Source: Polyangiales bacterium
Lineage (GTDB): Bacteria > Myxococcota_A > Polyangia > Polyangiales > JADJMO01
Assembly (NCBI GenBank): GCA_046593995.1
Contig: JBKJQC010001264.1
Coordinates: 1-50,887, forward strand
Reading direction: 5' to 3'
DNA length: 50,887 nucleotides
Part shown: in pieces, positions 717 to 45,687 of the stretch
Position numbering within the stretch: position 1 is the first letter of the stretch
Layout: each line of letters begins with the position of its first letter
Position numbers and translations under genes: made by a program
Notes under the pieces: model-generated
Told to the model about the DNA's origin: nothing
Database searches by the model: none
Seen by the model: the letters and a program-made list of their open reading frames with translations, nothing else

Positions 717-2405
717 TCAGTACCCCAGCGCCGTTTTTACGTAGCCCTTGTAGGCAGTGTGACCGGCCGGATCCGGGTGGATGCCGTCAGTCGTCGAGAC
801 CACCCACGCCGTCGTGTCGACTACGACCGGTGCTGGCGACCACGCGCTGCGCGCGGCCACGGCAGCGTCAATCTCCGCACGGAACGCGGCCTCAGTCGCA
901 TCCGCGATGTCCGCTCGCACGAGCGGATAGGCCATGTACATCTTGCACGACGGCTTCAGCGCGTGAATCTCATCCATGAGCGACGCGAGCTTGGCGCCCC
1001 ACGTCGCTGCGGCGGTGCCGTAATCGTTCGTTCCGATCGCGCTCCAGAATTCGTTGGTGGTCGTGCCGTCCATGCCCGCGGCGAAGATGGCCGCGATCGT
1101 CGCGACCGTGTCCCCGGTGAGGCTCCGGCCCGAGTACGCCTCGATCGTGACGCCGCCGGGGAAGTCCCGGCGCAGGAGATGATCCCACCCCTCGGTCAAG
1201 GGGAATGTTGCGTAGTAGCCGGACGAGATCGAATCGCCGTAGACCACGAGCCGACGCGAAGGAGCACTCGCCGTAGACAGCGTCGTCGTCAGTGCCGCAG
1301 CCGTGGGCACGCGGATCGCGCGGAGCTGCGCGCCGTTCCCCGTGCCGAGTTGCCGACCGTTGATCACGTTGATCGTTTTTGTGCCTGCCGCAATCGCGGT
1401 GAACGTACCCGAGCAGAAAACGCTGCTGGTGGGGGCGCCGACGGTGGTTTCCGCCTTGTGCGACGTCGTGGAGATCAAGTCCAAGTCCCCAACAAATCCG
1501 CCAGCGTCGACGGGCACGAAGTCATAGGCGATTTTCGCGGCGTCGGTGACGAGGCGAACGCGCGCGAACATCGAGCGCCGCGTGCCATACGACTGCGCCT
1601 CGTTGTAAGCGCTGTCGTTGAAGTGCGACGTGTCGAGCGGGAAGCGACGCTCGCCGATGTCTGTGCGCGTGATCGTACCGGTCTTCGTGAGTGTGAAGCC
1701 GCCGACGCTACACGTGGTCGTGGACGCGGAGCCGTCCCAGTCGGTCTCGGCACGCCACAAGAACGCGAGGTCGGCGTCTGCGAGCAGCGCGGCGGGGAAG
1801 TGATTGCGATCGAACGTCGTCTGGTGCAACGCCGTGTACGCCTGCAACTCGGCGTCCGTGAGTACGCGGTTGATGATGGCGATCGCTATCAGGCCGATAC
1901 TGCAGGGGCCGCCGTACGTGAGCCAGGGGCTGTTTCCGATCGTGAAGATCGCGGACGCGCTCGGGGCGTTCCAGCTGAACGCGGCACTCGTGCGGATCGC
2001 TTCTCCGGCAGTACACCAGCGGAGCGCGCTCGTTCCGTTCGACGGGACCACAACGCCGACCGCAACGCGGTTGCCTGCGTTCAGGGTCAGCGCCGCGGCG
2101 CTCGATGCGCCGCCTGCGCCGTGGCCGACGATGTACGGCGTATCGCCGCTCACAAAATCGATCGTCCAACCGTTCACGCCTCCGACCTCGCAGAATGCGA
2201 CCGGTTCGACGTTCGACCCTACGGCGGTCGTCGGCTTCTCGACGATGACGAGCATCGTCTTGCCAGGACCGAAGCTCGGCCCGGTCCCGACAGGCGCGGC
2301 GAAACGCGCCGTCCCGGTCGCAGTGATGGCCGCCCCGGTGTAATCAACCAGATTGCTCGACCGCTGCCCGGCGACGAACGGCAGCGCGATCCCGATCCCG
2401 ATCAT
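717..2405 (-). CDS. tail fibre/spike protein: LamG-like N-terminus plus C-terminal SGNH/GDSL hydrolase
   Basis: 562 aa. SGNH blocks VVYGDSISSG, AIGTNDYG and TTDGIHPDPAGH sit in the last ~190 aa. INRVLTDAELQAY is typical of Laminin_G_3-type domains. Lies in the fibre cluster. Confidence 0.85.
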   Translation of the reverse strand: MIGIGIALPFVAGQRSSNLVDYTGAAITATGTARFAAPVGTGPSFGPGKTMLVIVEKPTTAVGSNVEPVAFCEVGGVNGWTIDFVSGDTPYIVGHGAGGASSAAALTLNAGNRVAVGVVVPSNGTSALRWCTAGEAIRTSAAFSWNAPSASAIFTIGNSPWLTYGGPCSIGLIAIAIINRVLTDAELQAYTALHQTTFDRNHFPAALLADADLAFLWRAETDWDGSASTTTCSVGGFTLTKTGTITRTDIGERRFPLDTSHFNDSAYNEAQSYGTRRSMFARVRLVTDAAKIAYDFVPVDAGGFVGDLDLISTTSHKAETTVGAPTSSVFCSGTFTAIAAGTKTINVINGRQLGTGNGAQLRAIRVPTAAALTTTLSTASAPSRRLVVYGDSISSGYYATFPLTEGWDHLLRRDFPGGVTIEAYSGRSLTGDTVATIAAIFAAGMDGTTTNEFWSAIGTNDYGTAAATWGAKLASLMDEIHALKPSCKMYMAYPLVRADIADATEAAFRAEIDAAVAARSAWSPAPVVVDTTAWVVSTTDGIHPDPAGHTAYKGYVKTALGY

Positions 2406-9109: not shown

Positions 9110-9636
9110 TTGGTCTCCCAAGGCTTCGGGGGCGGCGGGGGCGGCGGCTTCTTCGACGAGGACAAGAGATCACCGGGGAGGTCCGCGTCCGTGATCTTCT
9201 TCGCGACGCTCTTGGTCGTCTTCGGCGGGGCCGCCCACTGCGTGCACGAGAGCTCCGCGACGTACGTGTCGGCCGACGCGTTGTCCGGCCACTTGATCTT
9301 CTCGACCACCATCGACGCTACGTCTGCGTCCTGCAGCATCGGGTGTGACACTGCGATGCCCTGCTCCCGAGACGCCTCGCGGACGTACCGGCAGATCGCG
9401 CGGATGGTGTTGAGCCCGTCTGCGTTCGAGCCGGTGAGTCGGATCGAGAACGTCGCGAGCTCGTCACCAGTGAAGCGGATCGACGCGCCGTTCCGCCCGC
9501 GAGCCTTCGGCTTGTCGTAGCTCGAGCTCGTCTCGAGGCCGAAGAGGTGCGCACGGATCACCGACTCCTTGACGAGGATGGTCCCGATCGTGACCTGCCA
9601 GGCGTTCGGGTCCTGACGCGGAGTGGGGATGGACAT
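9106..9636 (-). CDS. tail/baseplate protein of unknown function with C-terminal poly-proline tract
   Basis: 176 aa. Its ATG shares 1 nt with the tape-measure stop (TGATG). Ends in ...KKPPPPPPPKPWETK. Confidence 0.7.
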   Translation of the reverse strand: MSIPTPRQDPNAWQVTIGTILVKESVIRAHLFGLETSSSYDKPKARGRNGASIRFTGDELATFSIRLTGSNADGLNTIRAICRYVREASREQGIAVSHPMLQDADVASMVVEKIKWPDNASADTYVAELSCTQWAAPPKTTKSVAKKITDADLPGDLLSSSKKPPPPPPPKPWETK

Positions 9637-11474
9637 CAGGCCCCGCCCTCGGTGTTCATCTCAGCGAAGTAGGCGTTCACCTCCGCGCGCACGGACTTGC
9701 CGATTTCTCGCGCGCTCGCGTTCGAGCCCCCGACCTGGACGATGATGTCGCCGATCGACATGGACCGAGGTGCCCCACCCGAGCTCGAGCCCGACGCTGC
9801 GAGCGACGAGAGCGTCATCTTCGGGGGCGTGACGGCCATGCGCATCGCCGCCTGCATGGCGGCGGCCTTGTTGTCGACGCCCTTCTCGACGCCGCCGACG
9901 GCGTGCTCGCCGTACGGGACCATGCGCTTCGCGGGGCTCGCGATGCCGAGCGTCTTCTTCACGGTGTCCGGGAGCAGGTCGATGAGCCCCTTGAACTTCG
10001 AAATTAGCCCCGCCCACGCGCCCTTCAGGCCTTCCCAGATGCCGTCGGCGATGCTCTTCCCGAAGCTCTTGAAGCCTTCCCACACCGAGCCGAGGTACGT
10101 GAAGAGCCGGTCGAACGCGCCACTGACCCACGCGACTATGTTGTCGAAGGCCTGTGGGATGAGCTTGATCTCGCGCCAGAGCTCCGCGAAGAACATCGCG
10201 AGGAGCTGCACGACACCGAGGACGACGGCCGCGATCGCGCCGAAGCCGATGATGACGGCGCCGAGTGCGAACCCGACGACCTTGCCGAGCGTCTTGAGCG
10301 AGTCGATCCAGAACGTCGACTTCTCGCCGCCCATGTCGAGCTGCACCATCAGATCCTTGATCGGCTGCAGGATGAACATGAGCCCCTCGCCGAGGCCGCC
10401 GAACAGCGCGCCCGTCAGATCCGCGGTCACCTCGAGGAAGCTCGCGAAGCCCTCGACGGCGGAGATCACGTCGTCGACGCTGACCTTCGAGAGCATGTCG
10501 CCGATCGCGGTCGAGATCTTCTGCAGGAGACCAATGAACCGCTTCCCCGTGGCGGACGCTGGATCGAGCGCCGCGACCAGCGCGCCAAGCGCCTTCCTCG
10601 CCGGCTCGAGTGCGCTCGATGCGTCGAGCGCGTTCAGCAGCCGTCCCGGCGCCGACTTCAGCGATTCGAGGACGCCGGGGAGCGTGTTCTTCGCGAAGTC
10701 CTGAGCAACGCCGCCGAGCTCCTTGCCGCTCGTCTCCGTGATGGTCTTGAGGGCCGCCGCCTGGAGCTTCGCGACGTCCAGCGAGCCGCTCTTGATCGCG
10801 GCTTCGATGTCCTCGGCCGCATCGCCAGACGACCCTACAGCGACGCCGAGGATGTCGCGCAGCTTGGCCGTGTTGAGCCCCGCCGCGCCCATCGCGGCGA
10901 TGCTCTTGGCGCCGAGCTTGCCCTTGTCGTCGAGATCCGAGAACGCGGAGACGAGCGCCGCCGTGTCGTGGCCCATCGCGCCGAGGTCGGCGGCGCCCTG
11001 GATGATCTTGAACGCGCTCGCGACCGAATGGCCCTTGCCGACGAGCTTCGTAAGCTGCTTCTGGATCTCGTCCGGATCGTTGCCGAGGATCGACGCGAGC
11101 GAGTTGATGTCCTGCGTCGCGGCGTCGAACGCCTTCGTGTCCTTGATGACTTGCTTGAGCTGGAAATCCAGCTTCTCGCCGTCGATCGCGTCCTCGATGG
11201 CGAACTTCGCGAAGGCCGCACCCGCGCCGGCGGCCGCGACCGCGATGCCCGCGAGACCAGTCATTGCCATCGGCGCGAGCTGCGTCGCGAAGACGGAGCC
11301 GACGGACTTCGCGACCTTCCCGAGCTTCGTCATCCCGCGCGAGGCCGCGCCGGTGAGCTTGTCGAGGTTGATCCCCTTCATGGAGGACTGCACGCCCTTG
11401 AGCGACTTCGCGACGTTGCGCGCGGGGGCGGTCGCCTTATCGACGATTTCCAAAACCCACTTCAAGTCCGCCAT
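9636..11474 (-). CDS. tail tape measure protein
   Basis: 612 aa, Ala/Gly/Lys-rich helical sequence with hydrophobic central segments. Lies directly downstream of the G/GT chaperone pair. Confidence 0.9.
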   Translation of the reverse strand: MADLKWVLEIVDKATAPARNVAKSLKGVQSSMKGINLDKLTGAASRGMTKLGKVAKSVGSVFATQLAPMAMTGLAGIAVAAAGAGAAFAKFAIEDAIDGEKLDFQLKQVIKDTKAFDAATQDINSLASILGNDPDEIQKQLTKLVGKGHSVASAFKIIQGAADLGAMGHDTAALVSAFSDLDDKGKLGAKSIAAMGAAGLNTAKLRDILGVAVGSSGDAAEDIEAAIKSGSLDVAKLQAAALKTITETSGKELGGVAQDFAKNTLPGVLESLKSAPGRLLNALDASSALEPARKALGALVAALDPASATGKRFIGLLQKISTAIGDMLSKVSVDDVISAVEGFASFLEVTADLTGALFGGLGEGLMFILQPIKDLMVQLDMGGEKSTFWIDSLKTLGKVVGFALGAVIIGFGAIAAVVLGVVQLLAMFFAELWREIKLIPQAFDNIVAWVSGAFDRLFTYLGSVWEGFKSFGKSIADGIWEGLKGAWAGLISKFKGLIDLLPDTVKKTLGIASPAKRMVPYGEHAVGGVEKGVDNKAAAMQAAMRMAVTPPKMTLSSLAASGSSSGGAPRSMSIGDIIVQVGGSNASAREIGKSVRAEVNAYFAEMNTEGGA

Positions 11475-11972: not shown

Positions 11973-12434
11973 TCAGGTCCCCGGTCCGAAGCGCCGGTCG
12001 ATCATCGGGAGGCCGTCCTCGAGGATGTCGAGGGCACAGAACGCGATCTTCTTCTCGGTCGCCGCCGAGCCCTTGCTCGACGTGCTGTCTGCCTCGGTGA
12101 GCCCCTCGAACTTCACCTCGACGGACCGCACCGGGCTGCCGGGAGTGGAGTCGATGAGCGCGACGCGCCCTTTGCAGTCCATCGGCGCGACGCCGTACAT
12201 GGAGCGGATGCGCGCCTTGAGCTTCTCCCAATACGGGAGGAGCACGGTCATCGAGAGCTCGTAGTCGGCGTCGCCCTCTGTCACGCCGAGCGGGTTGCGC
12301 GCCATGCCGCGCACCTTCTCGCGGTCGATGGCGCACTTCCAGTTGACCTCACCGACGCCGAGGAGCGCGAGCCCCAGGACCGAGCAGGTCTTCGTCGTGT
12401 GCGAGGGGAACTTGCCCGTTGCGGTCTGCAGCAT
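11973..12434 (-). CDS. tail tube protein
   Basis: 153 aa with ATG start, between the sheath and the chaperone genes. Confidence 0.8.
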   Translation of the reverse strand: MLQTATGKFPSHTTKTCSVLGLALLGVGEVNWKCAIDREKVRGMARNPLGVTEGDADYELSMTVLLPYWEKLKARIRSMYGVAPMDCKGRVALIDSTPGSPVRSVEVKFEGLTEADSTSSKGSAATEKKIAFCALDILEDGLPMIDRRFGPGT

Positions 12435-12509
12435 GTGAGCGACTCCAAAAGCAGAGGCGCCGCGCTACGGGTGATCCCGCAGAACGGCGCCATGTTCGAG
12501 CTGTGAGGA

Positions 12510-13955
12510 TCAGGCGGCGGTCGCGACGAGGGTGCTCGTGTAGCCGAGGGTGAGGACGATCTCCTTCATGTAGAAGAGCGGCTGCACGCGGACCTCGATC
12601 TTGATCTGCTTGTTGCGGATGTCGCTGTTCCGACCGATGCGGCCGGTGACGCCCGACACATGGCCCACGAGCGCGGCCTCGAGGGCGTCCGTGATGTCCC
12701 CGTCCATCACGAGCGCATCCGCCTCGCGGATCTTGCCGGTCGTCGCGTCCGCGAAGCGCGTGTCGTTGAGATAGTCGAGGGCCTTGTTGCGGGCCGTCTT
12801 GCTCGCCGTGTTGATCACGCGAACGAGCTGCGAGAGACCGTAGTCGGAGCCCGACGCCGCGAAGGTGTTGCCCTGCGTGACGTAGAAGCCCTCGCGCCCA
12901 GAGACTCGGCGAAGCGTGGTGTACCGGAACGTGTCGAGCGCCGTCGAAGCTTCCTCGTCGTGCTCGATGCCGGAGACGCGGATCGCGCCCGACAGCAAGC
13001 GCCCGAGGTCCTCGCTGATCGGCGACTGCGACAGGCGCTCGGTCACCGGGAAGATCGCCGACCGTCGGTAGCTGAGTCCGTCGAGGTCCGAGACCTTGGT
13101 GCAGTAGCCCGCGGCGATGAGGGTCCGCTTCTCCTCGAGGGCGGGAGCCGCGGCGATCAGCGCAGCGCGCCACGTCGCGAGCCCGGCTGCGCTCGTGGCG
13201 ACGGGGCTCGGCGCCTCCATCACCGCCACGGTGTAGCGGTACAGGGTCGCGAGCGAGGAAAGTTTCGTCTTGATCACCGCGAAGGTCGCCGCCATCGCCG
13301 TGGCGCGGTCGGCGTCCGTCGCGCCGGCGTTCGCGTTCACGACCGAGACGACCCCCACGTCGCGGCCGCTCGCGATCAGTGCGTCGAGCGCGTCCGTGAT
13401 GTTCGTGTTCGTGAGGCCCGGCGCCGTGCACGTGAACGTGTACTTGTTGTCGACCGCGTAGTTCGTCCCGGTCGCGAAGTTCAGCGTCACGCCGTTCGGC
13501 ATGAGGTACGTCGCTGCGGTGACGATCTCGGGCGAGTAGGTCACGCCCCCGTCGAGCGAGTACTTGAAGGTCGCCGTGCCGCGGGCACCCGCCTGGACGA
13601 TCTGCACGATGCCGCTCGCGTCGTCCGTGGGCACACCCGTCAGGGTCACGACCGGCGGCGAGGTGCCTGCGGAGGTGACTGCGCTGTTTGCGCCCGCGGT
13701 GGACGCGGTGGTTCCGACGAGGATGATCGGACCGTGGTCCTCCGTCGCGCACAGGCTCGCGACCAACTCCGCGCCCTTTCCGACGCCGACCGCCGCGATG
13801 ACCTCCGCGGGCGACGCGTTGTTGAAGTCGTAGAGCGTGCCCGCGACGGCGAGCGTCGAGTGCCCGATGACGCACACGATGCCGTCGGTCTGCGACGCCG
13901 CGATGCCGAGGTTGCCGTCCTGCAGTCCGACCGTGGCCTTGGGGAACGTGGGCAT
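12510..13955 (-). CDS. contractile tail sheath protein
   Basis: 481 aa, first gene of the sheath-tube-G/GT-TMP block. Carries the ~90-aa module shared with the capsid proteins (residues ~92-180). Confidence 0.9.
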   Translation of the reverse strand: MPTFPKATVGLQDGNLGIAASQTDGIVCVIGHSTLAVAGTLYDFNNASPAEVIAAVGVGKGAELVASLCATEDHGPIILVGTTASTAGANSAVTSAGTSPPVVTLTGVPTDDASGIVQIVQAGARGTATFKYSLDGGVTYSPEIVTAATYLMPNGVTLNFATGTNYAVDNKYTFTCTAPGLTNTNITDALDALIASGRDVGVVSVVNANAGATDADRATAMAATFAVIKTKLSSLATLYRYTVAVMEAPSPVATSAAGLATWRAALIAAAPALEEKRTLIAAGYCTKVSDLDGLSYRRSAIFPVTERLSQSPISEDLGRLLSGAIRVSGIEHDEEASTALDTFRYTTLRRVSGREGFYVTQGNTFAASGSDYGLSQLVRVINTASKTARNKALDYLNDTRFADATTGKIREADALVMDGDITDALEAALVGHVSGVTGRIGRNSDIRNKQIKIEVRVQPLFYMKEIVLTLGYTSTLVATAA

Positions 13956-14015
13956 GATCTCTCCGTCGGCGCGCGCGATTGCGGCCTTGCTCGTGTCGTT
14001 GTTCGTCGGGCGGCG

Positions 14016-14195
14016 TCAGGTCGTGGCGAGCACGCGCGCGGCGACGAGCTCGCGGAAGCGCTCCCAGTCACCGGCGTCGAACGCAGCGCGGATCGCCGTT
14101 GCGTGTTCGATCTCTTCAGGGGTCGCCGGATCGCAGACGTCGCAGAAGCCTTCGTCCTGGCACTCTTCGCAGTCCGGCTTCCACTCGTCGCTCAC
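14016..14195 (-). CDS. small Cys-rich protein (zinc-ribbon-like)
   Basis: GTG 14195 is in a GTGA overlap with the upstream stop. 59 aa: VSDEWKPDCEECQDEGFCDVCDPATPEEIEH... with G/C-ending codons. Confidence 0.5.
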   Translation of the reverse strand: MSDEWKPDCEECQDEGFCDVCDPATPEEIEHATAIRAAFDAGDWERFRELVAARVLATT

Positions 14196-14716
14196 GGTCC
14201 ACCCACGTCGGGCTCGCCGGCGTCGAGGATCCCGTCCCCGAAGATGCCTTGCGATCCGTCGATCGCGACCGTCTCGATCACCACGGGGACGAACCGCGCC
14301 GTCGGCATGTCGGTCTCGAAGACCGGGACCCGCACCATGACAGGCACGGTGAGGACCCATCCATTCAGACCGTCCTCGGAGGGCAGCGCGTCGACCGTGC
14401 CGATCTCGTAGTGGACGGCCTCCGTCTGGAAGAGCGCGCTCACGAGGTTCACGAGCAGCGCCCACGCCTGGTCGAACGTGCCGTGCCAGCAGTGGACCTC
14501 GAACGTCATGGCGACGTCGACGAGGCCACGTGGGTAGTCGCCGACCTCCATCGCGGCCCCCGGGGTTCCCGTCGTGGGGACCCACACGTAGCGAGGCGGA
14601 GCTCCGTTCGCCGACAGGTGCTTCGCGCCGAAGTAGCTCTTTACCTCGGTCGCGCTCTCGAGGAGCGCGGCGACCGGTTCGAAGATGTCCGCCTGCGGGT
14701 TCGTCGGAGCGGGCAT
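14192..14716 (-). CDS. neck / tail terminator-type protein
   Basis: 174 aa with ATG start, positioned between the head-tail joining genes and the sheath. Confidence 0.65.
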   Translation of the reverse strand: MPAPTNPQADIFEPVAALLESATEVKSYFGAKHLSANGAPPRYVWVPTTGTPGAAMEVGDYPRGLVDVAMTFEVHCWHGTFDQAWALLVNLVSALFQTEAVHYEIGTVDALPSEDGLNGWVLTVPVMVRVPVFETDMPTARFVPVVIETVAIDGSQGIFGDGILDAGEPDVGGP

Positions 14717-14720
14717 GGGG

Positions 14721-15149
14721 TCAGGTCTTCACGAGTGCAAACCACTCGGTGTTGAGGCGCGCCGTGACGCGATCTGCCCACGGCTTCGGCATCGCCTTCT
14801 TCGGCAGGATGCGGCGCGCGGGGAGCTTCCACTTCGTTCCCTGCTTCTTCGCGCCGCGCTGGTGGATGAGCGAGACCTTGTCCGCGACGCGGATCTCGAA
14901 GCCCCGCTTCGCTCGGATCTTGAGGCGCATCCGGCCCGCGTAGCTCCGGAGCGCGACGCCCCCGGTCTTGAGCTTCTTCCAGGTCCGCCCCTGCGGGTTC
15001 TTACCGGCCTGGGCGCCCTCGACGGCGAGACGGTGCGTCTCGTCCGCGAACGCCTGCACGCTGTTGCGCACGAGCTCCTCGGACGCGATGCGACCGGTCG
15101 CCGAGATGATCTTCTCGAGCGAGCGGTAGTCGCCTTTCGGCTTCGTCAT
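14721..15149 (-). CDS. virion morphogenesis / head-tail joining protein
   Basis: About 142 aa, basic. ATG 15149 overlaps the upstream TGA (TGATG); a GTG 3 nt upstream is also possible. Confidence 0.65.
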   Translation of the reverse strand: MTKPKGDYRSLEKIISATGRIASEELVRNSVQAFADETHRLAVEGAQAGKNPQGRTWKKLKTGGVALRSYAGRMRLKIRAKRGFEIRVADKVSLIHQRGAKKQGTKWKLPARRILPKKAMPKPWADRVTARLNTEWFALVKT

Positions 15150-15556
15150 CACCAGCCTCGAGGCGTGTCAGACGCGACGACGAAATCCTCTTCGGCGTCG
15201 TCCGGTGTCGAGTCGACGATACCCACGGGCGAGACGCGACCGGCGGCAACTCCCTCGAGCCACCGCTGCGCCTCGTCACGTCGCGCCTGCCAGACCGCGC
15301 CTGCCGGCGTCTCGGGATTGATCCCCACGACGACCGTCATCACGTCCCAGCCAGAGAGCTGCGCGACCGCCAGACGTAGGTCGTCACCCCACGCAGTGAT
15401 CGGCAGGGTGTATCTGCCCGAGGCCGCGAGGTAGCCCTCGGCGTAGACCGAGCGCTTCGTGAGGATCCCGTTCAGGGTCGCGACGGGGATCTCCGCCGTG
15501 ACCGCGGCGGGAACGCCCACCTGCGCGAGGTCTCCGATCGCGGCGAATTGGGACAC
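15149..15556 (-). CDS. DUF1320 / Mu gp36-like head-tail connector protein
   Basis: 135 aa with GTG start. The pattern ...YLAASGRYTLPI...AVAQLSGWDV...RRDEAQRWLEGVAAG fits the gp36 family as I recall it. Confidence 0.7.
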   Translation of the reverse strand: MSQFAAIGDLAQVGVPAAVTAEIPVATLNGILTKRSVYAEGYLAASGRYTLPITAWGDDLRLAVAQLSGWDVMTVVVGINPETPAGAVWQARRDEAQRWLEGVAAGRVSPVGIVDSTPDDAEEDFVVASDTPRGW

Positions 15557-15557
15557 G

Positions 15558-16256
15558 TCAGACGAGCTCGCCGGTGACCGAAGCCGTGACGATCGGTGTT
15601 GCGCTGCCGCCGACGACGGCGACGCAGCGCATGTACCGGTCCAGGCCGACGAACTGCTTGCGCTCGTAGCCCGCGGTCTTGGCGGTCCAGACGTTGTCGA
15701 CGGCGGCGGCCGCGTTCTCCACGTTGAGCGTGACGCCGGTCGTCTCGCCGGTCACTGGGTCGAGCATCTCGATCGTCGCAGCGGTGAGCTGCTCGGCGGA
15801 GTATGTCTTCCCGCCGTCGAGCGAGTACTTGATCTTCGAGGTACCGCGCGCGCCGAGGAGCGTGCAGAGGACCTTGAGGTTGATGTACCGGTTCGGCGTC
15901 CCCGTGAGGGTGATGTCGGGCGGCGTGGTGCCCGCTTCGGTGACGGCCCCCATCGCGAGTGAGACGTCGGTCTTCTGGTCGAAGTCTGCGAGCGACCGCC
16001 AGGAGGTCAGGCCATCCGGCGACGTCTCGACGTAGACGTCGAGTGTCGGGTTCGTGCCGCTCTTCGCGGTGACCTCGAGAGTCAGCCGCGCGCACGAGCT
16101 CCCGCCGCACTCCACGACGGGACCGATCGTCTGGCCGGCGGCCAACGCGGCGAGGACGAGCAGCGCGATCGCCGGCGCGTGGACGAACTTGCCGCTCTCG
16201 GTCTTGTAGCCCGTGGCGGAGTTTTCGAAGGGCTTCGTGGTGACGTTTCTCGGCAT
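15558..16256 (-). CDS. capsid accessory/decoration-type protein carrying the shared module
   Basis: 232 aa with ATG start. Residues 101-196 are near-identical in stretches to MCP residues 231-327 (AMGAVTEAGTTPPDITLTGTPNR vs AMSAVTPAGTTPPVITLTGTPNR). Confidence 0.75.
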   Translation of the reverse strand: MPRNVTTKPFENSATGYKTESGKFVHAPAIALLVLAALAAGQTIGPVVECGGSSCARLTLEVTAKSGTNPTLDVYVETSPDGLTSWRSLADFDQKTDVSLAMGAVTEAGTTPPDITLTGTPNRYINLKVLCTLLGARGTSKIKYSLDGGKTYSAEQLTAATIEMLDPVTGETTGVTLNVENAAAAVDNVWTAKTAGYERKQFVGLDRYMRCVAVVGGSATPIVTASVTGELV

Positions 16257-16258
16257 GA

Positions 16259-16531
16259 TCAGATCTCCGCGGCGGCAATCGCCGCTGTCGCTTCACTGCG
16301 GGTCAGGCCCGCATCCAGGAGCTCGTCGACGTCCGCGCCGAACACGTCCTCGATCGCGGAGTACCCAGCGGCGACGAGCTCGGCGCGCGCCGGGAAGTTG
16401 AGTGGCAGCGCCGTACCAGGCACGCCCTTCTGCATGCCATGCCACGCCGCATCGAGCGCGCGGTCGCTGTTGCTCCGAGCGGCGAGCCGCTTGAGCAGGT
16501 AGTAGCGACGCGAGCTCGAGACGGTGGACAC
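16259..16531 (-). CDS. hypothetical head protein
   Basis: 90 aa with GTG start, between the MCP and the accessory protein. Confidence 0.6.
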   Translation of the reverse strand: MSTVSSSRRYYLLKRLAARSNSDRALDAAWHGMQKGVPGTALPLNFPARAELVAAGYSAIEDVFGADVDELLDAGLTRSEATAAIAAAEI

Positions 16532-16545
16532 CGGCTACGTCCTGC

Positions 16546-17733
16546 TCAGAGGACGCCGGCGTTGTGGCGCAGCTTGATGATCCCGGTTTTCTTGCTTCCG
16601 GGCGCGCGCTTGTAGCGGAGCGCCGCGTAGTACAGCCACATCGCCGCGAGGTCGGCGTTGCGCGAGATGTCGACGTCTTCCTTGAGCGTGAGCTCGGCGC
16701 CGTTGAACCAGAACGCGATCGCGCCCTTCTTGCAGATCAGAGAGGTGTACTTGCCGATCGACTTCGCGGTCCACACGTTGTTCACCGCGGCGTTGCCCGC
16801 CGCGATGTTCAGCGTGACGCCCGTGGTCTCGTTCTCGTTGAGCGGGTCGGTGATGAGGATCGTCGCAGCGGTCAGCGTCGCAACGCTGAAGGTGTTCCCG
16901 CCGTCGATCGACCACTTCACCCTCGAGGTGCCGAGCGCACCGAGCACGGTGCACTCGACCCTCAGATCGATCGGCCTGTTCGGCGTGCCGGTGAGGGTGA
17001 TCACCGGCGGCGTGGTCCCGGCCGGGGTCACGGCGCTCATCGCGGAGCCATCGAAGAGCATGCGGTCGCTCTGGATCACCGGGATCCCAGCGAGGCGCGG
17101 GAGCGAACCGCTGACAGCGTCGACCCAAAGCGGGCGACCCGCCGTGTCCTTCGCGCGGCGGAGGTCGCCCATCGTCCGCGAGTGAACGACCAGGCCGGCG
17201 ATGTCTTCGGAGTCGTCACCCCAGAGCTCGGTCCCGTCGCAGAGCAGGTCCCAGTCGAGCACCCGCGGCACGGTCGCCGAGTACTTGTCGACGACGAGCT
17301 GCCCGGTGCCGGACGCCACGGCCGCCGCGATCGCCGCCGAGTCCATCTTCCGACGGACCGAGCGGAGCGTCTGGCGCTTGCCCTCCTCGTAGATGTCCTT
17401 CCCCACGCTCGCCATCTCGGCCCAGCGCGTCGTGTTGAACATCAAGCCGGCAGCAGCGATGGTCGCCTGCTCCTTGCTCTGACCGAACGTCTTCGCCGTG
17501 AGCGCGTCGCCGTCGGCCGCCACGTCCTCGAACTCGCCGATCGAGTCGAAGTACGGGACGTTGATCGTCTCGCCGACGCGGCTTTCACCCGCGGGCATGT
17601 CGGGGCGCACGACGACGACGCCGGCGGCGGCCATCGGGGAATCGATGAACGCGTTCTTGTCCTTCCACGCGCCCTCGAGCGCCTCGTTCCAGTGCTCCGC
17701 GATGACGACGCTCGACTTGGTGACGTTGGCCAT
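16546..17733 (-). CDS. major capsid protein (HK97-fold type) with inserted domain
   Basis: 395 aa. ATG 17733 has CCGGAGA upstream. Follows the protease/scaffold gene. Confidence 0.9.
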   Translation of the reverse strand: MANVTKSSVVIAEHWNEALEGAWKDKNAFIDSPMAAAGVVVVRPDMPAGESRVGETINVPYFDSIGEFEDVAADGDALTAKTFGQSKEQATIAAAGLMFNTTRWAEMASVGKDIYEEGKRQTLRSVRRKMDSAAIAAAVASGTGQLVVDKYSATVPRVLDWDLLCDGTELWGDDSEDIAGLVVHSRTMGDLRRAKDTAGRPLWVDAVSGSLPRLAGIPVIQSDRMLFDGSAMSAVTPAGTTPPVITLTGTPNRPIDLRVECTVLGALGTSRVKWSIDGGNTFSVATLTAATILITDPLNENETTGVTLNIAAGNAAVNNVWTAKSIGKYTSLICKKGAIAFWFNGAELTLKEDVDISRNADLAAMWLYYAALRYKRAPGSKKTGIIKLRHNAGVL

Positions 17734-17868
17734 GATTCAGTGTCTCCGGGCCTCGCGAAGAGGACGGCTAAGCCCGTCGCCAACGTGGCGCGGGTGAGGT
17801 CTTGGGTCCGTGGCGACTGGCACGCGCGCGCGACGGCGCGCGGCGTGGCTCGTGAGCGCTTCCGCTCG

Positions 17869-19275
17869 TTACTTGCCCGTGCGGCTCTTGAAGTCGGCCC
17901 GCATCGCTTCGTAGAGATCGGGGTTCTCGGTCTTCAGCGCGGCGCGCTCGCCGGGCGCCATGTCGTCGTACGTCTTGCCCTTGTGCGTCGAGCCGAGCAC
18001 GGTCTTCTGCGACGGCTCTTCGACCTCCTTCGCGATGAGGTGAGGGACGGGTGCGGCGTCCTTCGCGAACTCGCGGAGCTGCTCGAGCGTCATCTTCGAC
18101 GCGAGCTTCTCCATGTGCGCGGTCAGCTTGCCGTCGCCACGCAGCGTCGCGAGGAGCGTCTTGCGGTCGTTCTCCTGGAGCTGACCGAGCGCGGCGGCGA
18201 GATCCTTCTCGAGCTGCTCGACGCGCGCGGCATCCGACTTCGCCGTCTCGATCGCACCGACGGCCTTGATGGTCGACTTCTCGCCGGCGGCCGCGAGGAG
18301 CTCGTCGCGTTCGCCTCGCGCGGTCTCGCGGTCCTTCACCGCAGCGGTGAGGTCCTCCTCCGAGCAATCGGCGCCGAGGCCGCAGATCATCGCGAGGGTC
18401 GTGACGAGGGTGAGCTTCGCGGCCATTTTCGTGCGTGCCTTTCCTGTGCTGCTGCTGCGCGTGCGCTCGACGAGCGCCGCGATGGTGCCTTCGAGCGAGC
18501 CGATCCGATCGACCATGCCCGCCTTGAGCGCCGCCTCGCCGAGGAGGACGCCGCCCTTTCCGAACTTCTCGAGCACGGTGTCGACGTCGGTGTCGCGGTT
18601 GCGGGCGACGGTCGCGACGAAGATGTCCGCCATGGCGTCGACGCGCGCCTGGATGAGCGAGCGGCCGCTCTTCGTCGAGACGTCGGCGCGCTTGTTCGGC
18701 GACTGGCTCGAGACGATCTCGATGTCCTTTGCCGACTCGCCTTCGGGCTTCGACATCGCCATCACCACGCCGATCGAGCCGACGCTGCCGGTGCGGTCGA
18801 TGACGATTTCGTCGGCCGCGGTGGCAATCCAATACGCGGCGCTCGCGCCCATGCCGCCGACATAGGCGACGACCGGCTTCACGCCGCGGGCCTCGAAGAT
18901 CTGCTGCGCGAACTCGTGGATCCCGTTCACCTCGCCGCCAGGGCTGTCGATGTCGAGGAGGATCGAGTCGACGTTCGGATCTTCCAGCGCGGCGCGGAAG
19001 TCGCGGGCCAGGATCTGCACCGACGTCATCGGGCCGCTGATGTCGTCGAACGCGTTCGCGCGTCGGAAGACCGGACCGATCACGGGGATGACCGCGACAC
19101 CGTCGCGGGTCGTGACCGTGCGCGTGTTCTCGAGCGGCCGACCGAGCCGCGCAGCAACGGCCTCCGGACCGTCGCCTTCGCGGTTCGCGATCTCGAGAAT
19201 GGTCGTCAGCGTGTGCGTGTCGAGCGCCCACGCAAGGCTCGCCGCGATCTGGAAGGCCTTGTGCATCGTGGTCAC
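17869..19275 (-). CDS. S49 (SppA/ClpP-like) prohead protease fused to a scaffolding domain
   Basis: 468 aa. GTG 19275 is in a GTGA overlap with the portal stop. Contains LLDIDSPGGEV and GGMGASAAYWIA. The C-terminal ~185 aa are helical and charged, like a scaffold. Confidence 0.9.
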   Translation of the reverse strand: MTTMHKAFQIAASLAWALDTHTLTTILEIANREGDGPEAVAARLGRPLENTRTVTTRDGVAVIPVIGPVFRRANAFDDISGPMTSVQILARDFRAALEDPNVDSILLDIDSPGGEVNGIHEFAQQIFEARGVKPVVAYVGGMGASAAYWIATAADEIVIDRTGSVGSIGVVMAMSKPEGESAKDIEIVSSQSPNKRADVSTKSGRSLIQARVDAMADIFVATVARNRDTDVDTVLEKFGKGGVLLGEAALKAGMVDRIGSLEGTIAALVERTRSSSTGKARTKMAAKLTLVTTLAMICGLGADCSEEDLTAAVKDRETARGERDELLAAAGEKSTIKAVGAIETAKSDAARVEQLEKDLAAALGQLQENDRKTLLATLRGDGKLTAHMEKLASKMTLEQLREFAKDAAPVPHLIAKEVEEPSQKTVLGSTHKGKTYDDMAPGERAALKTENPDLYEAMRADFKSRTGK

Positions 19276-20561
19276 CCTTCGGTCTCGTCGTCTTCGCCGT
19301 CGTCGTGAGCGGGCACGGGGGCCGGCTCGTCAGGCTGCGCCGTCTCGTGCTCGTCCTCGCTGGGAGACGGCTCGGGCGCCGGTGTCGACGTGACCGAGAT
19401 CTCGTCGCCGCCGTCCACCTTCGCGTAGCCGTGGCGCTCACGCGCCTCGTTCAGCGAGATGATGCCCGCCTGCTTCAACATCGATGTCGCCTGTGCCCGC
19501 GTCTGCTCGACCGCCGCGGCACCGCGCTTGTCTTCGAGGGTGGACGTGTCCCGGACGGGCCACGGCGCGGCAGCGCGTGATCCGAAGTTCGACTCCGCCC
19601 AAGGCGCGAGCACCTGGTCGTGCGCCATCGTCGACGTCGTTTCGTTGTCCGACTTCGTTTTGCCGAGCGCGACGTCCTTGTGAATCGCGGCCGCTCCCTG
19701 ATTGCCGGTGGCCCCCGCCATCGTGGTCAGGTTCTGCCCAAGGATGGCCACCGCGTAGCCGTTGTCCGCGGCATCGATCTGCGCCTTGAACGTCTCCCAG
19801 TTGCGGGCCGTGCTCTCGAGGAGCTTCAGGTCCATGCCGGCGGGGAGCGGCACGACGGCCTTGCGACCGAGGTTCCGGAGGTCCGTGGCGATCTGCGCGC
19901 GCTCCGGCTTTCCGGTCGGGACGCCGGTCGCGACGAGGATGCCGTGCCCCTTCGTCTCGCTGTGCGCCGGCCAGTCGGTGAGCGCGTAGGCCTTCAGCAA
20001 TGCCCACCGCGAGAGCGCGCGCCAGGCGCCGAACGCCCACGGGCGCGAGACACCGTATGGCGTGTAGAGCACCCACTCGCCGGTGCCGGTGATTACCGGC
20101 GTCTTCTTTCCGTCCTGACCGATGAACAACCACCGCTGGTTGTCGTCGTCCCACTCGAGGTTCCGCGGGTTCTTCGTTACGAGGCGCGGGATGTCGCGAC
20201 CGGCCGCGTTGATCGTCCAGAGGAGCTGCGCGACGCCGACGCCGAGCACGAGCCCCCACATGTGCAGGCGCTTGAACTCCGTATCGTCGAAGATCGACCA
20301 GTAGTCTTCCTTCGCTTCGAGCTGTCGGATCGCTCGCTTGCTGCGCCCCTCGAAGGTGAGCGGCAGACCGAGCAGCGTGTCCGTCCGCGTGTCGAGGACC
20401 GCCTTGATTCGGTCGTCCCCGATCATCGTCTCGCAGAGCTCGCCGGCGAGACGCAGGTGTCCGCCATCGGCGGAGACCTCCGCTGCTCGCAGGAGCGCCG
20501 GCGTCCACTGGATGTGCGACCGCGAACGCGGCTCGATGACTTCGATCGCGCGTGCGGCCAT
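19272..20561 (-). CDS. portal protein (Mu gp29/DUF935-like)
   Basis: 429 aa, directly downstream of terL, with an acidic C-terminus. Confidence 0.85.
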   Translation of the reverse strand: MAARAIEVIEPRSRSHIQWTPALLRAAEVSADGGHLRLAGELCETMIGDDRIKAVLDTRTDTLLGLPLTFEGRSKRAIRQLEAKEDYWSIFDDTEFKRLHMWGLVLGVGVAQLLWTINAAGRDIPRLVTKNPRNLEWDDDNQRWLFIGQDGKKTPVITGTGEWVLYTPYGVSRPWAFGAWRALSRWALLKAYALTDWPAHSETKGHGILVATGVPTGKPERAQIATDLRNLGRKAVVPLPAGMDLKLLESTARNWETFKAQIDAADNGYAVAILGQNLTTMAGATGNQGAAAIHKDVALGKTKSDNETTSTMAHDQVLAPWAESNFGSRAAAPWPVRDTSTLEDKRGAAAVEQTRAQATSMLKQAGIISLNEARERHGYAKVDGGDEISVTSTPAPEPSPSEDEHETAQPDEPAPVPAHDDGEDDETEG

Positions 20562-43838: not shown

Positions 43839-44203
43839 GCGCCTTTGCTCGTGAGTTGATCGAGGAGTTCCGTCGCGCCTTGCGTGAGGACCCGACCTTC
43901 GCGCGCGAGCTCCGCGACATGCTCGGCGCCCCTGCTCCCGTCGGCGGCGATCCGACCGACCCGGTTGCGAAGCCGCTCGCCGCGCGACTGCTCGGGATCC
44001 ATCAGACGACGCTCGACCGCGCCGTGCGCCACGGATGCCCAGTGACGCGCTTCAACGGACGTAAGCGGTTCGACATGGCCGCCGTCCGCGAGTGGTTCGC
44101 GGCGCAGAAGTCGAAGAGGGCGCCGTCCGCGACCACGCCAGACAACGACCCGATCAACGTCGACCACGTGGTGCGCCAGCTCGGAATGCGTCGGAGGGCC
44201 TGA
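43835..44203 (+). CDS. xis: excisionase-type HTH protein
   Basis: GTG 43835 with AAGGAG upstream. Contains LLGIHQTTLDRAVRHGCPVTRFNGRKRFDMAAVREWF. Immediately upstream of int. Confidence 0.7.
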   Translation: MSAFARELIEEFRRALREDPTFARELRDMLGAPAPVGGDPTDPVAKPLAARLLGIHQTTLDRAVRHGCPVTRFNGRKRFDMAAVREWFAAQKSKRAPSATTPDNDPINVDHVVRQLGMRRRA

Positions 44204-44205
44204 CC

Positions 44206-45687
44206 GTGCCGAACGAGCGAACGGGTACGATCGAGTGGAAGCGAGGCGTGGCCTACGCCCGCGTGTGGCTCGACCGCCCGGACGGCACGAAGCAGCGTAA
44301 GCGCGTGAAGCTCGGCACCCGTGACCCGAAGGTCGCCGAGCGGATGCTCGCGAAGGTCAACGGCATGATCGCGCGCGGCGATCTCGTCGCCGACGACGGC
44401 GCGGTGGAGGCTGGGCCCGACGAGTTCCGCGCGTTCGCCGAGCAGTGGGTGACGAACCGGAAGACGCGGAAGGTCGCGATGGCTCCCGACGAGCACATCA
44501 ACCTGAGGCGGCACGTGTACGAGGTGCAGACCGAGGGACGCGCGTTCGGGACGATGTGCCTGATCGACGTGCGCCCGCGCCACATCGTCGCGGTCCTGCA
44601 GGCGGTGATCGACGAGGGGCTGGCCAAGGGCACGGTCGACCACGTGAAGCGGCTGCTCTCCCGCATCTTCCGCGCGGCTGTCGGGAAGGACCTGATCCTC
44701 GCGAACCCCGTCACGGCCGCGGACACCCCCCGGATCCCGGACGCCCAGAAGACCGAGAAGGAGCGCGAGATCCTCACGGACGCCGAGGTCGCGCAGTTCC
44801 TCGAGTGCGGAAAGGTCGACCTCGAGCTCCGCATGATGTCGCTCGTCGCGCGCACGCTCGGTGGCGGGCGCACGAGCGACGTGAACCGCTGGGCCTGGAC
44901 GCACATCGACACGCGCACGTTCGAGGTGTGCACCATCCCACGGAGCAAGACCGGCAAGCCGCAGCGCATCGAGATCCCTGAGATGCTTCGCCCGTTCCTT
45001 GCCGCGTGGTGGATCGGCGCAGGCAAGCCGGCAGGCGGCCCCGTGTTCCCGGTGACGAGGGGGAAGCGGAAGGGCGAGTTCCGCGCCACCCGCGGCGTGA
45101 GCTACGCGAAGCGCCTGCGACGCGCGCTGAAGGTCGCCGGCGTCTTCCGCACCGAGCTCCACCAGGAGACGGAGACGACGCTCCCCGTCGACTTCCACTC
45201 GTTCCGGCGCGCGTTCGCCACGGCGCTCGCCGAGGCTGGGGTCAATGAGCAGAAGGCGATGGCTCTCGCCTCGCACTCAGACCCGAAGACCCACCAGCGC
45301 TACGTGATGAAGACGCGCGCCATGATGCGGATTCCGGCCGCCGCGCTCCCGTCCTTCAATGGCGGGACCGAGAACGATGAGGCCCCCGCGGGGGACAGTT
45401 CCGCAGAGGCCTCGCCGCAAACCGCTTTATTCGGAGCGGGAAACGGGATTCGAACCCGCGACCCTCAGCTTGGGAAGCTGGATAGCGCTTCGGATCGCTC
45501 GGGAAAGCTCGACGATCGAGGCTTCACCCTACCACGGCGGGTGCCGTTCGGGGACGCGTGCTTCACGTGGCTTCGGTGCGATGGGTCCCCGCTGTCCCCA
45601 TGGGACGCCGTCCGAGGACCAGCGTTTGAGCTACGGCGCGGCCGCGTGATTCATATCGTCGAAGAGCGGCTTGGAGGCCTGACATGA
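44206..45687 (+). CDS. int: tyrosine integrase; ORF continues through the att core
   Basis: GTG 44206. AP2-like arm-binding N-terminus (GTIEWKRGVAYARVWLDRPDGTKQRKRV). Catalytic motifs GGGRTSD, HSFRRAFATAL and ASHSDPKTHQRYV (Tyr codon at 45301-45303). Confidence 0.9.
   Translation: MPNERTGTIEWKRGVAYARVWLDRPDGTKQRKRVKLGTRDPKVAERMLAKVNGMIARGDLVADDGAVEAGPDEFRAFAEQWVTNRKTRKVAMAPDEHINLRRHVYEVQTEGRAFGTMCLIDVRPRHIVAVLQAVIDEGLAKGTVDHVKRLLSRIFRAAVGKDLILANPVTAADTPRIPDAQKTEKEREILTDAEVAQFLECGKVDLELRMMSLVARTLGGGRTSDVNRWAWTHIDTRTFEVCTIPRSKTGKPQRIEIPEMLRPFLAAWWIGAGKPAGGPVFPVTRGKRKGEFRATRGVSYAKRLRRALKVAGVFRTELHQETETTLPVDFHSFRRAFATALAEAGVNEQKAMALASHSDPKTHQRYVMKTRAMMRIPAAALPSFNGGTENDEAPAGDSSAEASPQTALFGAGNGIRTRDPQLGKLDSASDRSGKLDDRGFTLPRRVPFGDACFTWLRCDGSPLSPWDAVRGPAFELRRGRVIHIVEERLGGLT
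45433..45481 (-). other. attP-like core: 3-prime ~49 nt of a tRNA-Gly(CCC) gene (not a complete tRNA)
   Basis: The minus strand reads CCAGC TTCCCAA GCTGA GGGTC GCGGG TTCGAAT CCCGT TTCCCGC T CC. The upstream sequence has no GCGGGAA acceptor strand and no D-arm. Confidence 0.7.

Follow-up and report, generated by a model that had tools for sequence, protein, structure and literature searches.

A ~95-residue beta domain shared by the major capsid protein, an accessory virion protein and the tail sheath of a temperate myovirus-type phage

Results

The locus and its module copies

The stretch of DNA analysed here (the window) comprises 50,887 nt from a Polyangiales bacterium. The three-copy carrier is a temperate myovirus-type phage, and the GC content is 68% genome-wide and about 93% at third codon positions (GC3). 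A ~95-residue all-beta module occurs once in each of three minus-strand virion genes, namely those of the major capsid protein (MCP), an accessory protein and the tail sheath. The features are as follows.

11973..12434, minus strand: probable tail tube gene (153 aa), directly downstream of the sheath gene and identified from its position
12510..13955, minus strand: tail sheath gene (481 aa), DUF2586 / phrog_907
13419..13694, minus strand: module copy 3, sheath residues ~88-179; profile i-E 1.1e-37
15149..15556, minus strand: gp36-like head-tail adaptor gene (135 aa); weak phrog_195 'head-tail adaptor' match, no module
15558..16256, minus strand: accessory virion protein (232 aa); beta-sandwich host domain (~1-100 and 199-232) split by module copy 2
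15663..15956, minus strand: module copy 2, accessory residues ~101-198; profile i-E 3.4e-40
16259..16531, minus strand: 90-aa gene between the MCP and accessory genes; no family match
16546..17733, minus strand: MCP gene (395 aa, HK97 fold); PF05065, TIGR01554, phrog_247
16747..17046, minus strand: module copy 1, MCP residues ~230-329; profile i-E 3.9e-37

An earlier note on this DNA had placed the shared segment at MCP residues 236-327 (16753-17028), accessory residues 106-196 (15669-15941) and sheath residues 92-180 (13416-13682), all on the minus strand, and these coordinates were right. A six-frame scan of the window with a profile from 51 family members found exactly three copies (i-E 4e-37 to 3e-40) and no fourth, nothing else falling below E=1. 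The three pairs were compared by BLASTP with compositional adjustment. MCP 231-327 was 66% identical to accessory 101-196 (E=5e-37), the MCP and sheath modules were 44% identical (E=2e-17), and the accessory and sheath modules were 50% identical (E=5e-17). The proposed homology is borne out by these values and survives the correction for composition, and we conclude from the alignments that the three segments are copies of one homologous module. The description of the capsid pair as nearly identical over ~25 residues was overstated: the count by hand was about 22 of 30, and the identity over the whole module was 66%.

The MCP passed the cut-offs of PF05065 (30.3 bits; cut-off 24.2) and TIGR01554 (29.4 bits; cut-off 27.5) and matched phrog_247 'major head protein' (E=7e-16). 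Module aside, it was collinear end to end with the proteins annotated as MCP in phages Riverbug and MMP17. The closest solved structure was SPP1 gp13 (4an5), for which the aligned part is residues 1-227 only. The sheath matched PF10758 DUF2586 at profile positions 2-383 of 386 (110.5 bits, cut-off 26.4; E=1.4e-31) and phrog_907 'tail sheath' at positions 3-372 of 376 (E=2.4e-26); aligned over its full length, it shared 30-35% identity with the proteins annotated as sheath in MMP7, MMP17 and Riverbug. Sheath is also the annotation of its homologs in MMP17, Mx4 and FP_Mushu; no solved structure for it was detectable by sequence search. Thus, the labels MCP and sheath given in the earlier note stand, while 'capsid accessory' is taken from gene position only. 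The order of sheath, 153-aa gene and tape measure is that of relatives, and genes of 145-158 aa likewise follow the sheath gene in the loci L001, L007 and L008 and in Riverbug, MMP17, Mx4 and Mushu. PMC9230969 lists both MMP17 and Mushu under Myoviridae.

Pfam, NCBIfam and PHROGs profile searches gave no family match for the whole accessory protein. With the module cut out, its host domain matched the C-terminal part of phrog_9522 'major tail protein', and its N-terminal part resembled the N-terminal domain of the gp36-like adaptor of L001 (E=1e-7). The AF2 model of the accessory protein was all-beta (pLDDT 84). Of the L001 protein matching PF07030 Phage_Mu_Gp36, the C-terminal half resembles the 135-aa adaptor by eye. 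P0060 (321 aa) and P0013 (412 aa) are in-frame fusions of the product of the 90-aa gene, for which family searches returned no match, with the accessory protein, and counterpart small genes follow the MCP gene in L001, L007, L009, Riverbug and MMP17. We regard the 90-aa gene as functionally linked to the accessory protein.

Insertion of the module into its host proteins

The module is an insertion and not part of the family core, as evidenced by module-free relatives of the MCP and accessory protein and by the lack of corresponding columns in the DUF2586 profile. The insertion point in the MCP lies after residue ~229, about 65 residues ahead of the C-terminus, which in profile terms is position ~321 of 385 in TIGR01554 and residue ~325 of 385 in the RcGTA capsid. 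The MCPs of Thermus phage Riverbug (286 aa) and Meiothermus phage MMP17 (287 aa) have a clean gap at the module; all seven MCP orthologs (37-55% identity) carry it. For the accessory protein, a 130-aa ortholog (L007, 6720-7112) is module-free with the two flanks joined directly, and the module is also missing from the stand-alone orthologs in L010, L013-L016, L019, L023 and L035. In the sheath, the insertion follows the N-terminal ~88 residues. Sheath residues 1-93 aligned with DUF2586 profile positions 2-91 and residues 175-481 with positions 102-383, so that only about 10 profile positions stand opposite 81+ module residues, and the DUF2586 score rose to 113.2 bits when the module was cut out. 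Taken at the level of sequence, the module is a true insertion in all three host proteins, as the earlier note had supposed.

Across 25 IMG/VR loci and further contigs, every combination of the accessory module present, absent or missing together with the whole gene occurred; the MCP and sheath modules were retained. Every locus with the MCP module also had the sheath module where the contig includes the sheath.

Fold and Asp-box of the module

The excised MCP module gave an AF2 model with a pLDDT of 93.8, consisting of eight strands and all-beta. Judging from this model, the three segments are an autonomous ~95-residue domain. The module contains an Asp-box hairpin, K-[YW]-S-x-D-G-G-x-T-[YFW], which fits S-x-D-x-G-x-T-W and stands in the sequence of every copy (WSIDGGNTF, YSLDGGKTY and YSLDGGVTY). 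The module profile aligned with sialidase Asp-boxes in the PDB over 15-20 residues, and the family member P0016 scored 26.9 bits against BNR, the cut-off of which is 27. Each module has one Asp-box, and the model shows one small sandwich rather than a repeated-motif beta-propeller. The near-invariant positions, mostly Gly, Pro, Ala and Thr together with the Asp-box, have a structural look, and they include no evident patch of conserved aromatic or charged residues such as sugar-binding domains typically have.

In Pfam, two of the three excised modules were without any family at E<=10, and the sole match of the third was a weak Sortilin-Vps10 (E=0.038). Foldseek of the module model against the PDB gave no match at E<1e-3 (best E=0.2). 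The best PDB fold matches were of the FlgL/flagellin type (5zj0, 5ziz and 7c7z; TM ~0.5, probability 0.8-0.9), and a weak BFVD match was to an 'SbsA Ig-like domain-containing protein' (E=8.7e-3, TM 0.63). The PDB and BFVD fold searches returned no significant match to carbohydrate-binding or Ig-like structures, and no P22 coat or I-domain entry was among the 50 PDB matches listed. The Ig-like or Hoc-type identity suggested in the earlier note therefore found no significant backing, given the lack of a Pfam Ig match and of a significant PDB match for the excised module in Foldseek.

The module family and its hosts

A family profile search drawing on 1.84 billion proteins retrieved hundreds of full-length copies at E<1e-10. 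The family comprises 1,615 representative proteins at E<=1e-3, repeat-protein artefacts included, and 497 at <=1e-10. The giant SprB/BNR proteins in the representative search are summed weak hairpin matches with no significant single domain. Pfam, NCBIfam and PHROGs hold no model of the module. Among the best 150 matches and 11 further proteins, the hosts were ~70 DUF2586 sheaths, 28 MCPs, 15 accessory proteins and 46 others. Other host proteins were a DUF3383/phrog_205 sheath, a fibre-like protein, an E1_FCCH protein and a Baseplate_J protein with two copies. Sheaths and accessory proteins carry between one and three copies in tandem. The sheath copy is widely distributed, occurring in phages of Thermus, Meiothermus, Myxococcus and Faecalibacterium. 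Occurring in several unrelated families, in variable copies, and absent from some orthologs, the module has the distribution of a promiscuous virion domain, and we consider the family a large set of promiscuous, shuffled phage-virion domains.

Age of the copies

Same-host modules were 75-80% identical across phages, and the copies within this genome were 52-67% identical. A chance or compositional resemblance of Thr/Gly/Ala-rich segments in a high-GC genome has a probability close to nil. The 68% GC and the richness of the segments in T, G, A and V would favour it, but the composition-adjusted E values (5e-37 to 2e-17), the family-wide copies at E<1e-10 and the confident AF2 model oppose it; it was rejected on adjusted BLASTP, profile retrieval and the model. 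The earlier note had read the capsid pair as a recent duplication and proposed a DNA alignment to look for gene conversion. It is extremely unlikely that recent intragenomic duplication or gene conversion homogenised the capsid and accessory copies within the genome. Such an event would agree with the 66% protein identity of the pair, which is above the identity of either to the sheath copy, and with the NJ tree, in which the accessory modules of the window and L001 stand beside the MCP modules of the window and L001 (bootstrap 45%). However, the orthologous modules of the window and L001 were 79% (MCP) and 80% (accessory) identical, as against 67% between MCP and accessory modules inside the genome. 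The two MCPs overall were only 54% identical. MCP orthologs down to 37% identity carry the module. The DNA of the capsid pair was 71.5% identical, the longest identical run was 15 nt, and 22 of the 64 identical residues were encoded by different codons, at ~93% GC3. By nearest neighbours, 8 of 26 MCP modules were closest to an accessory module, and MCP-accessory identity within genomes (diagonal 35-66%) was not above the between-genome values.

Given the higher same-host identity and the divergence of the DNA, any copying predates the split from L001. We take the module to be old, not a recent graft. An older MCP-to-accessory copy in the common ancestor with L001 is possible and weakly supported. 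Each copy has come down with its host gene since before divergence from the known relatives; of the three, that in the sheath is the oldest and most widespread, and those in the MCP and the accessory protein make up one subfamily.

Discussion

The P22 coat protein I-domain is an insertion domain in an HK97-fold MCP, an autonomous beta domain that is absent from related MCPs. Like it, the module comes in toward the end of the MCP, with most of the A-domain before it and the C-terminal strands behind it, an equivalence of site that comes from profile coordinates and not from a structure. Unlike it, the module had no fold-search match and is shared with tail proteins; to our knowledge, the P22 I-domain is not. 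BNR/Asp-box (PF02012) proteins include sialidases, Vps10/sortilin and the sulfite-oxidase dimerisation domain. The module motif fits their consensus and there is the weak Sortilin-Vps10 match, whereas the module has one motif, no beta-propeller repeats and a similarity confined to the hairpin. The module also resembles FlgL/flagellin-type variable outer domains as a putative surface domain between conserved N- and C-terminal assembly segments; those matches reach only E 0.2-0.3 at 13% identity and are thus no evidence of homology.

Ig-like domains (I-set, FN3 and BIG2) on tailed-phage virion proteins were reportedly described by Fraser et al. in 2006 and 2007, as cited in PMC5292684 and PMC9230969. 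Examples are T4 Hoc, T5 pb10 and the C-terminal domain of lambda gpV. Like these domains, the module is a beta-sandwich of ~90-100 residues on capsid, decoration, sheath/tube, baseplate and fibre proteins, varies in copy number, is dispensable in orthologs and is exchanged between phages. Unlike them, it has an Asp-box, no Pfam Ig-type match and no significant PDB fold match, and it is internal with short linkers instead of a terminal appendage and is more conserved than its hosts. By analogy, the module probably works as phage Ig-like domains do, exposed and in weak adhesion. The claim that sharing between head and tail is unusual holds in part: for Ig-like domains it is a known phage habit (PMC5292684, PMC9230969), and the sheath copy is widespread and old. 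In the sheath, the module follows an N-terminal core segment as in the 'type 2' two-domain sheaths in passages of Evseev et al. 2022 (PMC9230969), where MMP17 (472 aa) and FP_Mushu (481 aa) are listed as two-domain sheaths; both of these sheaths contain the module. The passages of PMC9230969 on extra sheath domains make no mention of recurrence in capsid, accessory or baseplate proteins.

We favour, at somewhat better than even chances, an autonomous promiscuous domain that is inherited with each host gene and displayed as a generic decoration with weak adhesion. The module would be displayed outside the head and tail, most likely for adhesion, weak and multivalent, to polymers on surfaces of the host or its environment, and the accessory protein would be a decoration protein made of two such shuffled domains. 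Ig-like domains elsewhere are exposed phage decorations with proposed carbohydrate binding (PMC5292684). In the sheath models of passages in PMC9230969, additional domains lie away from the tube, and the insertion site in our sheath matches this position of outward-facing extra beta-sandwich domains. The accessory host domain also forms the C-terminal end of a 'major tail protein' family, which we counted for the decoration reading. Conservation is higher in the module than in its host, both in MCPs (56% vs 39%) and in sheaths (52.7% vs 36.3%); this is not what a decoration under loose constraint would typically show, and it is a hint of a structural role or a specific partner.

This conservation is shared ground for the other readings. 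A structural cement, with module contacts between capsomers, sheath discs or accessory protein and MCP stabilising the virion, is unlikely but a serious contender. The MCP insertion site appears topologically comparable with the P22 I-domain, all loci with the MCP module have the sheath module where the contig has the sheath, and disc stabilisation by extra sheath domains is discussed in a passage of PMC9230969. However, the module-free close MCP relatives come from viable cultured phages (Riverbug and MMP17), the 50 PDB matches listed hold no P22 I-domain fold, and the variable copy number of one to three in sheaths and accessory proteins, together with an accessory copy or whole gene that is dispensable, is a poor fit with a precise lattice contact. 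Homotypic docking, in which module-module pairing recruits the accessory protein to the capsid, and perhaps the sheath, and the shared sequence reflects co-evolving surfaces, seems very improbable. It could draw on the single MCP-accessory subfamily, the 8 of 26 nearest neighbours, the grouping of accessory modules, in the window and in L001, with the MCP modules of the same genome and the high conservation; that grouping, however, has a bootstrap of only 45%, and within-genome MCP-accessory identity is no higher than between genomes. In L007, L010, L013-L016, L019, L023 and L035, moreover, a module-free accessory protein accompanies a module-bearing MCP, so its host domain must bind alone, if binding occurs. 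That the module is no passive Ig-like ornament but a new fold family, kept under unusually strong constraint and better conserved than the capsid and sheath cores around it owing to a specific conserved partner, is a doubtful proposition. The partner could be the module itself, which would then join head, accessory protein and sheath to one another or bundle virions, or a ligand common to hosts in Acidobacteriota, Deinococcota, Myxococcota and Firmicutes.

Small exposed phage domains affect where phages stick, their stability and their engineering for display. The present analysis defines a large domain family that has no Pfam, NCBIfam or PHROGs model and no solved structure, and that evolves more slowly than its carriers. 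For annotation, one to three module copies account for capsid and sheath proteins, hundreds in number, that are labelled 'hypothetical' or are over-long, and the clean cases of presence and absence in three hosts identify sites in an HK97 capsid protein and a sheath that are naturally permissive to insertion. Since shared head and tail beta-sandwich domains are already established, this is an incremental step, except in the case that a specific partner underlies the conservation. In that case, a module coat on head and tail would represent a distinct adsorption or assembly strategy.

The module in the late operon of a temperate phage

The module-bearing genes are part of the minus-strand late operon of a temperate phage. 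The features of the operon and the integrase are listed below.

9636-11474: tape measure
Between tape measure and sheath in gene order: probable tube gene, 153 aa
12510-13955, minus: sheath, 481 aa; PF10758 (DUF2586) threshold passed; matches phrog_907 'tail sheath'
Between sheath and gp36-like adaptor: a 174-aa gene and a Neck1/tail-completion-like gene, the latter nearer the adaptor
15149-15556, minus: gp36-like adaptor
15558-16256, minus: accessory gene, 232 aa
16259-16531, minus: 90-aa gene between the MCP and accessory genes; no family match
16546-17733, minus: MCP, 395 aa; PF05065 and TIGR01554 above curated thresholds
17869-19275, minus, late operon: protease/scaffold
19272-20561, minus, late operon: portal
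44092-45687: tyrosine integrase

Other genes of the window encode a GH25 lysin, a helicase and an AAA_24 protein. A DNA search with positions 12000-18000 gave no match among cultured phages. A 562-aa protein of the distal tail region (717-2405, minus strand) ends in a GDSL/SGNH esterase domain (PF13472, E=6e-11) and is a possible tail fibre or spike that modifies receptors.

The earlier note had described one module shared by the MCP, the accessory protein and the sheath, and its coordinates translated exactly to the residues it quoted. The three-way similarity is real and far beyond chance. It held under composition-adjusted BLASTP, in which identity was 66% between the MCP and accessory copies (E=5e-37), 44% between the MCP and sheath copies (E=2e-17) and 50% between the accessory and sheath copies (E=5e-17). 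When the six-frame translation of the window was searched with a family profile based on 51 diverse sequences, exactly three copies were recovered (16747-17046, 15663-15956 and 13419-13694), with no further copy below E=1.

The module is an insertion in each host protein

We compared each host protein with its relatives. As the earlier note had proposed, the module proved to be an insertion and not a standard part of each family, as evidenced by module-free MCP and accessory orthologs and by a DUF2586 profile without columns for the module. The MCPs of the Thermus phage Riverbug (286 aa) and the Meiothermus phage MMP17 (287 aa) aligned with the window MCP from the first residue to the C-terminus, with a single clean gap at window residues ~229-331. 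The alignment with SPP1 gp13, the best solved MCP relative, stopped at window residue 227. Against TIGR01554 and the RcGTA capsid, the break fell at about position 321-325 of 385. From these alignments we infer that the MCP insertion site lies past most of the A-domain, about 65 residues from the C-terminus.

For the accessory protein, the syntenic gene of the related locus L007 (6720-7112) encodes 130 aa without the module. Its '...FTQRTAAG' runs straight into 'SQRLSAGGFDKYARAKA...', and it is these two stretches that flank the module in the window. Further accessory proteins without the module, of 123-160 aa, were found in L010, L013-L016, L019, L023 and L035.

When the sheath is aligned to the DUF2586 profile, residues 1-93 cover positions 2-91 and residues 175-481 cover positions 102-383, so that at least 81 intervening residues face about ten profile columns. 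The sheath without the module scored 113.2 bits against DUF2586, versus 110.5 bits for the whole protein, and the excised module gave no match to DUF2586. Every inspectable sheath homolog carried the module, including those of cultured phages of Thermus, Meiothermus, Myxococcus (Mx4) and Faecalibacterium (FP_Mushu). Relative to the family core, the sheath module is thus an insertion of old date and wide distribution. Since no insertion-free DUF2586 sheath was found among close homologs, the insertion status of this copy rests on the Pfam and PHROG profiles. One candidate, P0192 (342 aa), was rejected as it is N-terminally truncated within the module.

Age and inheritance of the copies

The module was present in all seven MCP orthologs retrieved (37-55% identity). 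A syntenic contig, L001 (NCBI assembly GCA_040384045.1), carries all three copies. Between the window and L001, the copies in the same host protein shared 79% (MCP), 80% (accessory) and 62% (sheath) identity; within the window, the MCP copy shared 67% with the accessory copy and 52% with the sheath copy. In a matrix of six genomes, same-host copies were again closer across genomes than copies within one genome, and no within-genome rise in MCP-accessory module identity, a signal of co-evolution, was found. At the DNA level, the MCP and accessory copies were 71.5% identical with a longest identical run of 15 nt, and 22 of their 64 identical residues used different codons despite a GC3 of about 93%. 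These results contradict the recent duplication suggested by the earlier note, and the DNA comparison it had called for revealed no recent gene conversion in this pair. The module has been vertically inherited in each host protein of the window phage.

In a neighbor-joining tree, the sheath modules separated as a clade from a second clade of MCP and accessory modules. The accessory modules of the window and L001 were placed beside their own MCP modules, not beside other accessory modules (45% bootstrap). It is possible, but unproven, that the MCP module was copied into the accessory gene long ago, in an ancestor common to the two phages.

Distribution across related loci

The loci surveyed were IMG/VR loci and contigs fetched by other routes. 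The sheath carried the module in every surveyed locus with a sheath on the contig. The MCP carried it in all surveyed loci except Riverbug and MMP17, the IMG/VR loci having been retrieved through module-derived patterns. Among cultured phages, none was found whose MCP has the module. The accessory protein occurred with the module, without it, or was absent entirely. Three IMG/VR contigs encode a fourth carrier, an ORF of 272 aa located between the accessory gene and the sheath:

L013, 6133-6948: fourth-carrier ORF, 272 aa, host unassigned
L014, 3280-4095: the same
L015, 3268-4083: the same

A search of GTDB genomes with the MCP alignment gave no match. The three-copy alignment gave a single match, a Bryobacteraceae (Acidobacteriota) MAG (contig L035, JBDKSR010000453.1), and no other GTDB representative genome had a relative. 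In the prophage-like region of this MAG, the MCP and the sheath contain the module and the accessory protein lacks it. The match hints at Acidobacteriota hosts for this phage group.

Fold of the module

The module is an autonomous domain. AlphaFold2, given the MCP copy and the 51-sequence alignment, modelled eight beta strands and no helix (pLDDT 93.8, pTM 0.83). Foldseek found nothing at E<1e-3 in the PDB; the closest folds were FlgL outer domains (TM ~0.5, E~0.2). In BFVD there was one strong match, a 472-aa viral protein (E=4.6e-6, TM 0.77) that, judging by its size, may be a Meiothermus-phage sheath; an 'SbsA Ig-like domain' protein came next, as a weak match. Positions 40-60 of the module profile form a textbook Asp-box and align to sialidase Asp-boxes. 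When the PDB was searched with the 51-sequence profile, the matches were to sialidases, over the Asp-box hairpin alone, apart from a marginal one to 9n2z 'LM2363'. With a single module, only designed-armadillo matches appeared, and these were discarded as spurious sums of many sub-threshold stretches.

A second shuffled domain in the accessory protein

The accessory protein was modelled as all-beta (pLDDT 84). Foldseek with the whole model gave no significant match, only weak jelly-roll-like ones (TM<0.3). Searches with the host domain (residues 1-100 and 199-232) hit phrog_9522 'major tail protein', in its C-terminal part, and phrog_427. In L001 (6862-7584), the domain forms an N-terminal fusion with the gp36-like head-tail adaptor. 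The PHROG matches and this fusion indicate that the host domain, too, is a surface-type domain subject to shuffling, and so the second shuffled beta-sandwich in the protein. Many relatives have it as a stand-alone protein (123-160 aa), e.g. L007 6720-7112. A functional link between the 90-aa gene and the accessory protein is implied by their in-frame fusion in P0060 (321 aa) and P0013 (412 aa).

Size and hosts of the module family

The excised module matched no family in Pfam, NCBIfam or PHROGs. When 1.84 billion representative proteins were scanned in full with HMMER, there were 1,615 matches at E<=1e-3, a total that includes repeat-protein artefacts (giant SprB/BNR proteins), and 497 at E<=1e-10. 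Giant SprB/BNR/CHU_C repeat proteins (P0012, P0024, P0028, P0034, P0042 and others) looked like cellular homologs but were rejected. They top the list only because many weak Asp-box matches sum, and none has a significant single domain; the list is therefore a trap for anyone building the family from it.

We classified 159 proteins, comprising the best 150 of the scan and 11 from other searches, two being in both sets. About 70 were DUF2586 sheaths, 28 MCPs, 15 accessory-type proteins and 46 others. Sheaths and accessory proteins carried a single copy or two or three in tandem, with sheaths of ~560-580 and ~670-700 aa in the tandem cases. Other hosts were as follows.

P0104, 534 aa: DUF3383/phrog_205 sheath
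P0124, 874 aa: tail-fibre-like protein
P0039, 812 aa: E1_FCCH-domain protein
P0210, 557 aa: Baseplate_J protein, two module copies
P0023 and P0099: large proteins of unassigned type

Three accessory-type proteins, P0021, P0019 and P0074 (400-413 aa), have three tandem modules each. These occupy another loop of the same host domain, the one preceding the last strand and not the one following the 'FxQxTD' strand. Only one of these proteins was part of the nearest-neighbour census, and two of its three modules had sheath-type modules as their closest relatives. The different loop and the sheath-like neighbours point to independent insertion events.

Role of the module

Several virion proteins carry the module as a loop insertion, orthologs can dispense with it, and its copy number varies. 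It would be exposed on both head and tail; the sheath insertion site is where published models put outward-facing extra domains (PMC9230969). The module is probably a decoration, most likely one that would give weak multivalent adhesion, as proposed for the Ig-like domains on Hoc, pb10 and gpV (PMC5292684). The main rival is that it would act as a stabilising lattice contact. Among MCP orthologs, mean identity was 56% in the module versus 39% in the HK97 body; among DUF2586 sheaths, it was 52.7% versus 36.3% in the host, and the module was the higher in 690 of 741 pairs. Evolution slower than that of its hosts is unexpected for a decoration domain. Conservation above the hosts speaks for a specific constraint, so that the lattice contact and a more novel reading stay open beside decoration.

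A literature search found nothing on DUF2586 and nothing relevant on the Asp-box with phage capsid. The earlier interpretation holds in part: there is an insertion module, its origin is not recent, and in kind the phenomenon has precedents. The module belongs to a known class of promiscuous phage surface domains, and it defines a sizeable, uncatalogued family without a solved structure.
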